Below are positions 3,743-8,970 of a stretch of DNA of 64,000 nt, in pieces. A program made the translations under genes and the position numbers. Source of the stretch: Escherichia phage vB_EcoP_SU10; the sequence record NC_027395.1; one strand, written 5' to 3'. The notes beneath the pieces were generated by a model. It saw nothing but the letters and a program-made list of their open reading frames with translations, ran no database searches and was not told the DNA's origin. How positions within the stretch are numbered: the stretch's first letter is position 1; each line of letters starts with the position of its first letter.

Positions 3743-5986
3743 ATGGCTAAGCAAAAATATAGTGAAGAGGTGTTGGACGAGTTACGTGTTGACCTTCAAC
3801 GTCGTTTTAATTATGCTCAAGGCTACGTGGACATGGCTGTTAAGGGCTATGCTCGTGAAGCTTGGGAATATTTCTATGGTAACTTACCTGCACCAGTAAC
3901 TGCTGGCAGCTCTAGTTGGGTAGATCGTACTGTTTGGGAATCTGTTAACGGTACATTGCAAGATATTATTAACGTATTCTGTTCTGGTGATGAAGCAGTT
4001 ACTTTCGTAGCTGACAACCAACAGGATTCTGATGCTGCTGATGTAGCAACTAAATTAGTTAACCAAATTCTTCTGCGTGACAATCCGGGATACAATATTA
4101 TCTCTTCTGCTGCACAAGAATGTCTGGTTACTCGTAACTCTTTTATCAAGTATTATTGGGATGAACAAACTTCTACTCAAACTGAAGAAGCTGAAGGTGT
4201 ACCACCGGAAGCATTGGCTGCATATGTTCAGGGATTAGAAGCTGGTGGACTCAAGAATCTGGAAGTCTTCACTGAAGAAAATGAAGACGGTACAGTCGAT
4301 GTTAAAGTTACTTACGAACAAACTGTTAAACGTGTGAAAGTTGAATATGTTCCTTCAGAGCAAATCTTTGTTGATGAACATGCTACCTCTTTTGCAGATG
4401 CACAATACTTCTGTCATCGTGTACGTCGTTCTAAAGAAGATCTGGTTGCTATGGGCTTCCCTAAAGATGAGATTGAAGCATTCAACGACTGGACAGACAC
4501 GATGGATACCACTCAATCTACGGTTGCTTGGTCTCGTACTGACTGGCGTCAGGATATTGATGCTGATATTGGTACAGATACCGAAGATATCGCTTCTATG
4601 GTTTGGGTTTATGAGCACTATATTCGTACTGGTGTTCTAGATAAGAATAAAGAGTCTAAACTCTATCAGGTTATTCAAGCTGGTGAGCATATCCTTCACA
4701 CTGAAGAAGTAACTCACATTCCGTTTGTAACCTTCTGTCCGTATCCGATTCCGGGTTCCTTCTATGGTCAATCGGTCTATGACATTACGAAAGATATTCA
4801 AGATTTACGTACCGCGTTAGTTCGTGGTTATATTGATAACGTCAACAATGCTAACTATGGTCGATACAAAGCTCTTGTTGGTGCATACGACCGTCGCTCT
4901 CTGCTTGATAACCGTCCCGGTGGAGTGGTTGAAATGGAACGTCAGGACGCTATTGACCTGTTCCCATACCATAACCTACCTCAAGGTATTGACGGCCTTC
5001 TAGGCATGTCTGAGGAGCTTAAAGAGACACGTACCGGTGTAACCAAACTAGGCATGGGTATCAACCCTGATGTGTTTAAGAATGATAACGCTTATGCAAC
5101 CGTAGGCTTGATGATGAATGCTGCACAGAACCGCCTCCGTATGGTATGTCGTAACATTGCTCACAACGGTATGGTTGAACTGATGCGTGGTATTTACAAT
5201 CTTATCAGAGAAAATGGTGAAGTTCCTATTGAGGTACAAACCCCTCGTGGTATGATTCAGGTAAATCCGAAACAATTACCAGCTCGTCACAATCTTCAAG
5301 TTGTTGTAGCTATCTCTCCTAATGAGAAAGCAGAACGTGCACAGAAACTGATTAGCTTGAAACAGCTGATTGCAGCAGATGCACAGTTAGCACCTCTCTT
5401 TGGTTTGGAGCAAGACCGTTACATGACTGCACAGATCTTTGAGTTGATGGGTATTAAAGATACACATAAATACCTTCTGCCTCTGGAACAGTATCAGCCT
5501 CCAGAACCTTCTCCGATGGAAATCCTCCAGCTCGAGATGACTAAAGCTCAGGTTGAGAACGTACAGGCTTCTTCTCAGAAGATGATTGCTGATGCATTCG
5601 ACCAACGTGAACGTACTACATTCGAACAGCAGAAAGCTGCGGATGAATTAAGTCTGCGTCAGGAAGAGTTGCAGTTCAAGCAAGAAAATGCAGCAGATGC
5701 AATGACTCTGGAAAACCGTAAAGAAGATAACAATGCTACTCTGGAACAAGCTAAGCACAAGTTAGCTCTTATGCAACAGCAGGTCCGTCAGTATGAATCT
5801 GTACTGAAAGAATTGCAGATGGTTATGTCTCATCAGGTAGACCAAGAGAAGATTGTTCAGCAAGCTCGTGTTCAGGACAAAACTTTGGAACTCCAAAAGA
5901 AAGAAGCTAATGTAACTAAGAAAGAGCAACAAGCTTCTCTCAAAGATTCACGGATTCCAGGCAAACGTCTTGGAAGTAAAAAGTAA
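3743..5986 (+). CDS. Portal protein
   Basis: 747 aa; directly downstream of terminase; coiled-coil Q/E-rich C-terminus; synteny-based. Confidence 0.75.
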   Translation: MAKQKYSEEVLDELRVDLQRRFNYAQGYVDMAVKGYAREAWEYFYGNLPAPVTAGSSSWVDRTVWESVNGTLQDIINVFCSGDEAVTFVADNQQDSDAADVATKLVNQILLRDNPGYNIISSAAQECLVTRNSFIKYYWDEQTSTQTEEAEGVPPEALAAYVQGLEAGGLKNLEVFTEENEDGTVDVKVTYEQTVKRVKVEYVPSEQIFVDEHATSFADAQYFCHRVRRSKEDLVAMGFPKDEIEAFNDWTDTMDTTQSTVAWSRTDWRQDIDADIGTDTEDIASMVWVYEHYIRTGVLDKNKESKLYQVIQAGEHILHTEEVTHIPFVTFCPYPIPGSFYGQSVYDITKDIQDLRTALVRGYIDNVNNANYGRYKALVGAYDRRSLLDNRPGGVVEMERQDAIDLFPYHNLPQGIDGLLGMSEELKETRTGVTKLGMGINPDVFKNDNAYATVGLMMNAAQNRLRMVCRNIAHNGMVELMRGIYNLIRENGEVPIEVQTPRGMIQVNPKQLPARHNLQVVVAISPNEKAERAQKLISLKQLIAADAQLAPLFGLEQDRYMTAQIFELMGIKDTHKYLLPLEQYQPPEPSPMEILQLEMTKAQVENVQASSQKMIADAFDQRERTTFEQQKAADELSLRQEELQFKQENAADAMTLENRKEDNNATLEQAKHKLALMQQQVRQYESVLKELQMVMSHQVDQEKIVQQARVQDKTLELQKKEANVTKKEQQASLKDSRIPGKRLGSKK

Positions 5987-7349: not shown

Positions 7350-8408
7350 ATGGCTAATCCAACTTTATTTGTATCGTATGACCAGAATGGTAAAAAACTT
7401 TCTTTTGCTAACTGGATTTCTGTTCTGTCCCCTCAGGATACTCCGTTCGTATCTATGACCGGTAAAGAGTCTATCAACCAGACTATCTTTAGCTGGCAGA
7501 CCGATGCACTGGCAAGCGTTGACGGTAATAACGCACACGTCGAAGGCTCTCGTGCTGAAGACGGTGAAATGAAACCGACTGTTATCAAATCTAACGTTAC
7601 TCAGATTCTGCGTAAGGTTGTTCGTGTTTCTGATACTGCTAACACCACCGCTAACTACGGTCGTGGTCGTGAACTGATGTATCAGCTGGAGAAGAAAGGT
7701 AAAGAGATCAAGCGTGACCTCGAGAAAATCCTTCTGTCCGGTCAGGCTCGTACCGATGTTCTGGCTGACCAGTATCTGACTAACTCCGCAGCTGATCCTG
7801 CTGTTGCTGGTCTGAATGACACCCATGCAGCTCGTAAGACTGGTGCATTCCAGTTCCTGTGTGCTCACGGTGGTCTGGCTGGTGGCGTTGTTGACAAGAC
7901 CAAGAATGGTCCTGCTGACCCGGATACTGGTGCAGTAACTGTTAAAGTTGCACAGAATGCTTCTAACCCGACCACTAACATCGGTTTTGATGAAGCTGAT
8001 ATCTTTGATATGACTCTGCAACTGTACACCGCTGGTTCTGAAGCAGATATCATCATGATTAACCCGGCTCATGCTAAGATCTTCGCTGGTCTGCAAGAAA
8101 ATACTCAGGGTTCACGTAAGCGTATCTTTGAGAACACCAAGCAGTTCATCTACGAAGTTAACAGCATCACTGACCCGCTGGGCCAGAGCTACAAAATCAT
8201 CGTTAACCGTTGGATGCCTACCGATGCAGTTTACTTCTTCCGTAGCGCTGACTGGACTCAGATGGTTCTGCGTGCTCCGAAACGTACTGAACTGGCTAAA
8301 GACGGTTCTTACGAGAAGTGGATGATTGAAATGGAAGTTGGTCTGCGTCACCGCAACCCGTATGCTTCTGGCGTACTGTTCACTGCTGCGGGAAAGGCGG
8401 CGGCGTAA
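7350..8408 (+). CDS. Major capsid protein (putative)
   Basis: 352 aa; position after scaffold; followed by a strong terminator; no motif verification possible. Confidence 0.7.
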   Translation: MANPTLFVSYDQNGKKLSFANWISVLSPQDTPFVSMTGKESINQTIFSWQTDALASVDGNNAHVEGSRAEDGEMKPTVIKSNVTQILRKVVRVSDTANTTANYGRGRELMYQLEKKGKEIKRDLEKILLSGQARTDVLADQYLTNSAADPAVAGLNDTHAARKTGAFQFLCAHGGLAGGVVDKTKNGPADPDTGAVTVKVAQNASNPTTNIGFDEADIFDMTLQLYTAGSEADIIMINPAHAKIFAGLQENTQGSRKRIFENTKQFIYEVNSITDPLGQSYKIIVNRWMPTDAVYFFRSADWTQMVLRAPKRTELAKDGSYEKWMIEMEVGLRHRNPYASGVLFTAAGKAAA

Positions 8409-8414
8409 CAGTAG

Positions 8415-8933
8415 ACACTGTCTACTGTTAGCCCTGCGTCTTTAGCAAGCCTAGAGACAGGGGCTACTCGGCAGTTCACTGCAAGCGCGGAGAAAAGTGA
8501 TGGTTCTACCGAAACAACTGGCTTTACTTGGTCAGTGACAGGAGGTGGTTCTATCACTCAGTCGGGTTTGTATACTGCTCCGAGTGCGTCTCAATCCACT
8601 GATGTATCCATTACTGCAACTTTAGAAGGTGTTTCTGGTACAGCAATCATTTCTGAAATTGTTGCTCCTGCTCCTACTATTGTAGCTAAGGGTCCAATTA
8701 CGGGTAAAACTGGTGGTTCTTCCACTAACTTCACTACCATGTTTACTGTAACTAATTCTACTGCTGCGGATTACACGTTTGTTGTAACCCCTACAGAAGC
8801 TGGTACAGTAAGCGCAGCTGGTGCGTTAACCTTAGATGCTGCTGCAAGTGGCGAAGTTACTGTTCAAGCAAGTTTGACAGCTGATCCGTCCATCAATGCA
8901 ACATGCACTTTTACTGGTGTAACACCTGCTTAA
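8415..8933 (+). CDS. Ig-like (Big_2-type) two-domain region lacking a canonical start for its first domain
   Basis: In-frame translation from 8415 gives TVSPASLASLETGATRQFTAS...TGFTWSV...ITATLEGVSGTAII (Big_2-like); first in-frame ATG/GTG/TTG is GTG 8535. Confidence 0.45.
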   Translation, partial: TLSTVSPASLASLETGATRQFTASAEKSDGSTETTGFTWSVTGGGSITQSGLYTAPSASQSTDVSITATLEGVSGTAIISEIVAPAPTIVAKGPITGKTGGSSTNFTTMFTVTNSTAADYTFVVTPTEAGTVSAAGALTLDAAASGEVTVQASLTADPSINATCTFTGVTPA

Positions 8934-8940
8934 AACTAGA

Positions 8941-8970
8941 CCCTGCCTTCGGGCGGGGTTTTTTCGTTTT
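8941..8970 (+). terminator. Rho-independent terminator
   Basis: CCCTGCC-ttcg-GGCGGGG hairpin (UUCG tetraloop) followed by TTTTTTCGTTTT. Confidence 0.7.

Follow-up and report, generated by a model that had tools for sequence, protein, structure and literature searches.

An orphan Ig-like coding region behind the major capsid gene of Escherichia phage vB_EcoP_SU10, probably what is left of a programmed −1 frameshift extension after its inactivation

The analysed 64,000-nucleotide stretch of DNA from Escherichia phage vB_EcoP_SU10 (sequence record NC_027395.1; hereafter referred to as the window) contains, directly behind the gene of the major capsid protein (MCP), a coding region for two immunoglobulin-like (Ig-like) domains that has no start codon of its own. 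This orphan region is very probably what remains of an MCP extension that was once produced by programmed −1 ribosomal frameshifting and is now disabled. In phages related to phiEco32, a minority of the ribosomes slips by −1 on the heptamer G GGA AAG, 9–12 nt before the capsid stop codon, and continues through Gly-Gly-Gly-Val-Thr-Val-Asp-Ser-Val-Thr-Val-Ser-Pro... into at least one Ig-like domain, so that a fraction of the capsid subunits bears an Ig appendage. In SU10, one template switch appears to have copied one arm of a palindrome onto the other and thereby to have replaced GTGTG by CTGTCT. Ribosomes that still slip would add only the peptide GGGVTVDTVYC, and the Ig sequence, which lies in frame 0 behind TAA-CAG-TAG, would be transcribed but not translated to a meaningful extent. 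An earlier note on this DNA, which was made from the sequence alone, had offered a decayed or recoded fusion of the capsid protein with a decoration domain as one of several explanations. This proposal was essentially right, as a C-terminal Ig extension that relatives add via GGGAAAG appears to be freshly disabled here; the note overlooked, however, both the heptamer (8390–8396) and the palindrome that encloses the two stop codons. The extension system and its loss in SU10 are already known (PMC9965538), and the additions made here are modest: the mutational mechanism, the recency of the loss, a wider survey, and a re-reading of proteomic data published in 2014.

The MCP gene (SU10 gp9) extends from position 7350 to 8408 on the + strand, on which all other features described below are located as well. 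It encodes 352 amino acids and matches the Pfam family SU10_MCP (E = 1e-76) and PHROG 1328 (major head protein). The capsid region is 98–99% identical to that of the phiEco32 group of coliphages, which belong to the genus Kuravirus (best match 98.8%). Behind the stop codon TAA (8406–8408) the same frame continues with CAG (8409–8411) and TAG (8412–8414), reopens at 8415, and stays open for 172 codons up to TAA at 8931–8933, exactly as it had been read in the earlier note. The reopened region (SU10 gp10; 8415–8933) is intact, encodes two Ig-like domains of the Big_2 type, and lacks both a start codon and a frameshift link to the capsid gene. The Ig assignment draws on the literature and on matches in Pfam and PHROGs: the segment is hit by PHROG 13745 (Ig domain containing protein) with E = 8.5e-81, and an Ig-like fold of gp10 was also predicted in the 2022 cryo-electron microscopy (cryo-EM) paper on SU10. 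The Big_2 profile (PF02368) reaches 21.0 bits on 8415–8930, and 14.9 and 17.3 bits on the two separate halves of the segment, all of which remain under the Pfam gathering cutoff of 22.8 bits. Assigning Ig domains to the sequence from 8415 onwards is reasonable in view of PHROG 13745 and of the extension of phiEco32, which is nearly identical, has six more N-terminal residues, and scores 25.0 bits in two stretches above the cutoff, but the Big_2 match of the SU10 sequence is weaker than the note had implied. A single-sequence AlphaFold2 model of the 172-residue segment (mean pLDDT 54, pTM 0.37) was too poor for testing the fold. An intrinsic terminator with a 10-bp stem, a UUCG loop, and a T-run is located at 8938–8969, and a terminator is annotated at the equivalent place in phages 4E8 and Paul. 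Because this terminator follows the Ig segment and no promoter-like site was found between the MCP gene and the Ig segment, both are regarded as one expression unit that is closed at this site.

The heptamer G GGA AAG lies in phase for a −1 slip (X XXY YYZ type), with GGA and AAG being codons of the capsid frame (GCG GGA AAG), and the slippage site of the major head gene had already been assigned to nt 8,390–8,396 of SU10 (Mirzaei 2014, PMC4281155). The junction was compared with that of related genomes, a check which the earlier note had named, by reading 22 relatives base by base (15 GenBank or IMG/VR loci, five metagenome contigs, and two duplicates). The GenBank relatives were phiEco32, ShigP1, 4E8, Bas91, SU7, Bas93, Paul, Bas88, EP335, and EK010; IMG/VR, which yielded 11 MCP relatives, contributed copies of NJ01, ECBP2, and KBNP1711 together with one uncultivated genome. 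GGGAAAG is present in phase in 22/22 relatives, and the junction is one base shorter than in SU10 in every one of them. Consequently, the Ig frame of all relatives is the capsid gene's −1 frame, which is open from the heptamer for 178–545 codons, into the Ig-like domains, compared to 11 codons in SU10. The junction of phiEco32, for example, reads ...GGGAAAGGTGGCGGCGTAACAGTAGACAGTGT-GACTGTTAGCC..., and its Ig frame is open back through the heptamer. That the Ig region is in frame with the capsid gene, as the earlier note had stressed, is thus true of SU10 but a mere by-product of the gain of one nucleotide.

The remnant −1 extension of SU10 (8396–8431) consists of GGGVTVDTVYC followed by TAG at 8429–8431, which gives a predicted frameshift product of 360 amino acids versus the 352 of the MCP. 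SU10 probably still frameshifts, with a product that exceeds the regular MCP by just eight residues. It retains the slippery heptamer and a 3′ structure and lacks the open −1 frame of a productive frameshift cassette; judged by these reading frames, it is a defective copy of the cassette and not a working member. For the relatives, the RefSeq record of Paul contains a joined coding sequence (CDS) annotated with “Frameshift at GGGAAAG” that cites the phiEco32 paper, two capsid isoforms produced by frameshifting were described for YF01 (2023, PMC9965538), and the Privateer paper, which also cites phiEco32, reported that the longer capsid form was found in virions and gave the extended form for phiEco32 too. 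The heptamer itself is described in the YF01 and Privateer papers as well. The YF01 paper further noted the premature −1 TAG of SU10, 39 nt past the start of the heptamer, and called the loss unique to this phage (PMC9965538).

The annotation of the extension in public records is heterogeneous. Most Kuravirus records in GenBank list it as a free-standing CDS with a GTG start 12 nt after the capsid stop, the separate Ig CDS starts further downstream in the records of Bas88, EP335, and EK010, and the ShigP1 record labels the extension “major head protein.” Among the records matched, a joined frameshift CDS exists only in Paul, and the free-standing “Ig domain containing protein” entries of most Kuravirus records ought to be converted into such a joined CDS.

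When the 80-nt junction of SU10 is aligned to that of its nearest GenBank relative, 4E8, 77/80 positions are identical, and the sole difference is a cluster at 8418–8423, where CTGTCT replaces the ancestral GTGTG with a net gain of 1 nt. Through this cluster, the phiEco32-type GTG has become CTG, one base has been gained, the right palindrome arm is fully complementary to the left arm, the Ig frame has passed from −1 to 0, and TAG 8429–8431 has come to lie in the −1 frame. The ancestral site, as found in 4E8, phiEco32, and others, is the imperfect inverted repeat TAACAGTAGACA-G-TGTGACTGTTA. In SU10 it has become the perfect 25-nt palindrome TAACAGTAGACA-C-TGTCTACTGTTA (8406–8430), which holds the 0-frame stops TAA 8406 and TAG 8412, overlaps the −1-frame TAG, and is the longest inverted repeat with a short spacer within the window. 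At 8415–8430, the derived sequence (ACACTGTCTACTGTTA) matches the ancestral 16-mer TAACAGTAGACAGTGT exactly once the latter is reverse-complemented, and the 1-nt spacer is inverted as well. The change of the central G to C is not demanded by arm complementarity, yet it is predicted by copying through the spacer. Arms of 12 bp result from 4 of the 4096 possible 6-mers at the cluster site. Two publications (PMC8604942, PMC7202029) give homogenized arms together with an inverted spacer as the signature of template switching at imperfect inverted repeats. Since the reverse-complement match, the spacer inversion, and the lone cluster fit this signature, we infer that a single template-switch error turned the imperfect palindrome into a perfect one. 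Insertion of a mobile element as the origin of the palindrome was ruled out, as the difference from the relatives amounts to 6 nt for 5 nt. A function as terminator was also ruled out, because no T-run follows the palindrome and the real terminator is the one at 8938–8969.

No SU10-type junction was present among the 98 GenBank records retrieved with the 80-nt query (best match 96.3%), and all rows among the matches listed (60 of 98) span 79 nt as opposed to the 80 nt of SU10. With a 40-nt query centered on the palindrome, none of 95 GenBank records exceeded 37/40 identical positions. The exact palindrome was not found in IMG/VR or the JGI metagenomes, and the junction pattern had no match in a collection of genome contigs. 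All seven contigs that were retrieved with a motif located upstream of this cluster were of the ancestral type. Downstream of the cluster (8424–8933; 510 nt), comparison with 12 relatives revealed no substitutions private to SU10, and only three differences separate this segment from the nearest contig. As the Ig segment thus lacks SU10-private substitutions, the loss of the extension appears to be recent.

A variant that occurs in no other genome, in a phage whose genome was determined from 454 reads only, might also be an error of sequencing or assembly. In that case, SU10 itself would have kept the ancestral junction and would make the fusion protein, and the palindrome would stem from mis-assembly or would have arisen in vitro by fold-back or by a template switch, of which polymerases are capable; the 55.4-kDa “9+10” form reported by the 2014 proteomics would fit such a scenario. 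However, the genome was covered ~978-fold, and the change is a cluster of substitution and insertion rather than a homopolymer error. Furthermore, an independent laboratory obtained from purified SU10 what the deposited sequence predicts: gp10 was not found by gel and mass spectrometry of purified virions, and the cryo-EM map of the head showed no density of a minor capsid protein (2022 cryo-EM study). Consistently, the YF01 paper reported no extended SU10 capsid band (PMC9965538). Based on the coverage, the non-homopolymer nature of the change, and the agreement of the gel, mass spectrometry, and cryo-EM data with the sequence, an artefact, which the earlier note had listed among its options, is considered unlikely.

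The 2014 proteomic data, as tabulated, offer no positive sign of peptides from the Ig region. Table 2 of that study lists gp9 with 23 peptides and 78.1% coverage, and a constructed “9+10 alternative major head protein” with 22 peptides and 50.29% coverage (Mirzaei 2014, PMC4281155). These figures correspond to 275 of 352 covered residues for gp9 and to ~263–264 of 523–525 for the “9+10” entry. Since the latter covers fewer residues than gp9 alone, the table contains no net Ig-specific coverage, and the simplest reading is that the “9+10” entry reflects shared gp9 peptides without any Ig-specific ones. Peptides specific for the Ig segment of SU10 would include TLSTVSPASLASLETGATR and QFTASAEK. 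Later papers have cited the 2014 table as showing a gp9-gp10 fusion, and neither the SU10 genome-tracing paper in NAR (2023) nor the BASEL paper contains a statement on the frameshift.

RNA structures are found at the heptamer and downstream of it. The heptamer is located in the loop of a small hairpin (8383–8403; stem CTGCTGC/GCGGCGG in the computed fold) that had been described for SU10 before (Mirzaei 2014, PMC4281155); across 12 diverse relatives about 90% of the cells of this hairpin pair, and the changes are one-sided only. The hairpin formed by the palindrome (hairpin 1) starts 9 nt after the heptamer and has a folding energy of −13.7 kcal/mol (z = −4.0). In its ancestral form, hairpin 1 alone reaches −5.3 kcal/mol (z = −0.65) and is no stabler than shuffled sequence. 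Its core stem AACAGT/ACTGTT is invariant in the 12 relatives. A second conserved hairpin (8429–8466; fold z = −4.3) consists of the outer stem UAGCCCU/GGGGCUA and the inner stem GUCUUUAG/CUAGAGAC. Here, 94% of the cells pair in the same relatives, and compensatory changes occur at two pairs of the inner stem (UA/GC/AU and UG/GC); one of them ties together non-synonymous changes of the Ig linker, namely Leu/Val codons with Glu/Pro/Gln/Leu codons. This second hairpin is likely to be part of the structure that stimulates frameshifting, and in the relatives the imperfect palindrome and the second hairpin together probably stimulate the slip. In RNAalifold and minimum-energy folds of ancestral-type sequences, the right arm of the palindrome pairs with a downstream region (about 8471–8479 in SU10 coordinates) and not with the left arm. 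The SU10 mutation must shift the pairing balance strongly towards hairpin 1. The alternative long-range pairing (8419–8428 with 8471–8479) is accompanied by one G-C to A-U swap, which perhaps goes back to a single phylogenetic event.

If the link to the capsid gene is broken, the Ig segment might still be expressed on its own as a free, possibly truncated decoration protein, starting at CTG 8418, at GTG 8535 by reinitiation after ATG 8500, or at ATC 8553. The first canonical in-frame start of the Ig frame is indeed GTG 8535. It corresponds to residue 41, and the alignment of domain 1 to Big_2 covers residues 4–72 of the 8415 frame, so the assertion of the earlier note that this start would remove roughly the first half of domain 1 is borne out. 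The out-of-frame mini open reading frame described there was also found: 12 codons (MVLPKQLALLGQ*) extend from ATG 8500 to TGA 8536–8538 (8500–8538), the stop codon overlaps GTG 8535–8537, and a good ribosome-binding site precedes the ATG, although its GGAG is located at 8489–8492 and not at 8488–8491. Such an arrangement would suit reinitiation, AGGAGG 8 nt before ATC 8553 could serve as a Shine-Dalgarno sequence, and a free-standing “Ig domain containing protein” is annotated in many GenBank records. None of these starts is a plausible basis for an independent gene, however. Neither CTG 8418 nor GTG 8535 is preceded by a Shine-Dalgarno sequence, and the −13.7 kcal/mol hairpin encloses CTG 8418. 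Among the in-frame starts of the Ig segment, a Shine-Dalgarno sequence was found only for the non-canonical ATC 8553. The ATG of the mini open reading frame is lost in NJ01, Paul, EP335, and Bas93, GTG 8535 is GTA or GTT in 6/8 relatives compared, and the phiEco32-type GTG, which corresponds to CTG 8418, is GTA or ATA in NJ01, ECBP2, Paul, Bas88, EP335, and EK010. A conserved start codon with a ribosome-binding site, as expected for an independent decoration gene, is thus absent from these genomes. Products from 8535 or 8553 would miss half of domain 1, and gp10 was not seen in virions. Both the reinitiation at GTG 8535 and the initiation at CTG 8418 that the earlier note had considered are accordingly disfavored, and independent expression of the Ig segment by any of these routes is regarded as very unlikely. 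The mini open reading frame was judged to be a chance by-product of codon choice. The AGGAGG motif (8539–8544), which is situated inside domain 1 and kept only in close relatives, probably just represents Gly-Gly-Gly codons (ACA GGA GGT GGT).

Another possibility is that the Ig frame, which is intact, is rescued by recoding, either through a ribosomal hop from GCG 8403–8405 to GCG 8436–8438 in the manner of T4 gene 60 or through read-through of TAA and TAG. The two matched GCG codons are 30 nt apart, and the take-off codon is immediately followed by the stop, at which a strong hairpin begins. On the other hand, the arrangement is unconserved, unique to SU10, and a one-off by-product of the mutation. 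It shows no resemblance to the nascent-peptide signal of gene 60, and a GAG element is missing ahead of the landing site. In SU10, an extended capsid band or density has not been observed either. Tandem stop codons make read-through negligible. Rescue of this kind is therefore highly improbable. Hardly credible at all is the specific scenario in which the mutation by accident built a working bypass site, where ribosomes stalled at TAA 8406 with peptidyl-tRNA-Ala would hop the hairpin and make some fusion protein. The product would read ...FTAAGKAAA-SLASLETGATR across the junction, and a bypass resembling that of gene 60 would have arisen in a single mutational step, with SU10 making a little capsid-Ig fusion. 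A double-shift rescue, consisting of a −1 slip at the heptamer and a +1 shift before TAG 8429, was rejected on inspection of the codons GAC ACT GTC TAC TGT TAG, which do not appear to offer a plausible +1 re-pairing.

Several points weigh against interpreting the Ig region as a disabled frameshift extension. Both the frameshifting of the relatives and the absence of an extended SU10 capsid protein are taken from the literature, and the primary phiEco32 evidence (Savalia 2008) is represented here by the accounts given in the Privateer paper, Mirzaei 2014, and the Paul record. Mirzaei 2014 (PMC4281155) held that mass spectrometry supports a gp9-gp10 fusion, and the different reading of these data proposed above is derived from the arithmetic of a summary table and not from peptide lists. 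As a stimulator, the palindrome has no support from covariation, since its core stem never varies, and RNAalifold prefers the downstream partner for its right arm. A single derived sequence cannot prove a template switch, and a systematic hairpin artefact in the 454 data, although unlikely, has to be kept in mind. The anatomy of the region, the frames of the 22 relatives, the uniqueness of the SU10 junction, the exact reverse-complement relation of the derived to the ancestral sequence, and the absence of decay in the Ig segment nevertheless are direct observations, and the reading as a disabled extension is retained as by far the most probable one.

The closest known systems are the capsid-Ig extensions of phiEco32 (gp11/gp12), Paul, YF01, and Privateer, which share with SU10 the gene, the in-phase GGGAAAG, the downstream sequence at 98–99% nucleotide identity, the Ig domains, and the terminator. 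Unlike in these phages, a stop ends the −1 frame of SU10 after 11 codons, and the Ig sequence lies in frame 0 behind two stop codons, so that the extension cannot form. Gene 10A/10B of T7 and T3 and G/GT of lambda likewise yield, through −1 slippage shortly before an open reading frame ends, a minor structural protein with an extended C-terminus. The frameshift in lambda G/GT uses the same heptamer, G GGA AAG. These systems have no sequence relationship to the Kuravirus cassette and contain other 3′ elements, and the SU10 copy, in contrast to them, is non-productive; the comparison to T7/T3 and lambda was drawn already in the YF01 (PMC9965538) and Privateer papers. With regard to the mutation, quasipalindrome template switches (the Ripley model; hotspots in E. 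coli and yeast) are similar in the one-step perfecting of the repeat, the reverse-complement bases, and the inverted spacer, but in SU10 such an event is inferred from one phage lineage, be it in nature or in the laboratory, and was not seen in a reporter. Big_2-type domains on virion structural proteins belong to the Ig-like decoration domains surveyed by Fraser et al. (2006), as does T4 Hoc, and are often added to phage structural proteins by frameshifting (cited in PMC9965538). In contrast to such decorated phages, SU10 virions apparently lack the domain altogether. In the ES17 paper, glycan binding was assigned to the tail fibre and not to the capsid Ig domain. SU10 resembles the T4 gene 60 bypass only superficially, by its matched GCG/GCG codons around a gap, the stop codon directly behind the first of them, and the hairpin located at take-off: the gap in SU10 measures 30 nt versus 50 nt, no nascent-peptide signal or landing element is evident, the arrangement is unconserved, and no product has been seen.

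Other arrangements of capsid and Ig sequences were encountered in more distant relatives. In one group, which includes three loci at about 3900–4430 (L008–L010), a further locus (L011), and Aeromonas phage LAh_6 (NC_048774; L022, 4147–4473), the MCP is 57–66% identical and GGGAAAG is absent. The capsid genes of this group end with ...CTG AAG GTA AAG GCG/CCC TAA, and their −1 frame is open from 20 codons upstream to 89–170 codons downstream of the capsid stop and encodes clear Ig domains (2× Big_2 at E = 8e-35 in L008, Ig_3/I-set in LAh_6). The Ig piece of LAh_6 is annotated as a separate “tail protein.” These phages are candidates for an unannotated −1 frameshift on the non-canonical heptamer G GUA AAG. 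In Salmonella phage 7-11 (gp009; L023, 3803–5560) and Cronobacter phage GAP52 (GAP52_011; L024, 3777–4877), no frameshift extension exists and a second capsid paralogue follows directly after the first. That of 7-11 is a 585-residue in-frame fusion of SU10_MCP and Big_2, and that of GAP52 is a 366-residue MCP copy without an Ig match. In these phages, a capsid with an Ig appendage seems to have been reached by gene duplication instead of recoding. Another distant MCP relative (IMGVR_UViG_3300033688_000038; L013, 3920–4052) contains an in-phase A AAA AAG 3 nt before the stop codon; its −1 extension comprises 42 codons rich in proline and lysine, in which no Ig domain was found. Two further records look like mislabelled, contaminated, or chimeric entries, namely MZ417522.1 (“Mycolicibacterium phage J1”; 24,953 bp), which is 95–96% identical to the SU10 capsid region, and PP350014.1 (“phage PH444”; 114,913 bp), which is ~38 kb longer than any Kuravirus genome.

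These results resolve a small contradiction in the SU10 literature, where a capsid-Ig fusion reported in 2014 stands against the bare capsid observed in 2022: the sequence explains the bare capsid, as had been recognized earlier (PMC9965538). SU10 serves as the structural reference of the genus Kuravirus; the Ig decoration for whose production essentially all other members are equipped is therefore missing from the SU10 capsid model. As a natural knockout, SU10 also indicates that neither assembly nor growth in the laboratory requires the extension.

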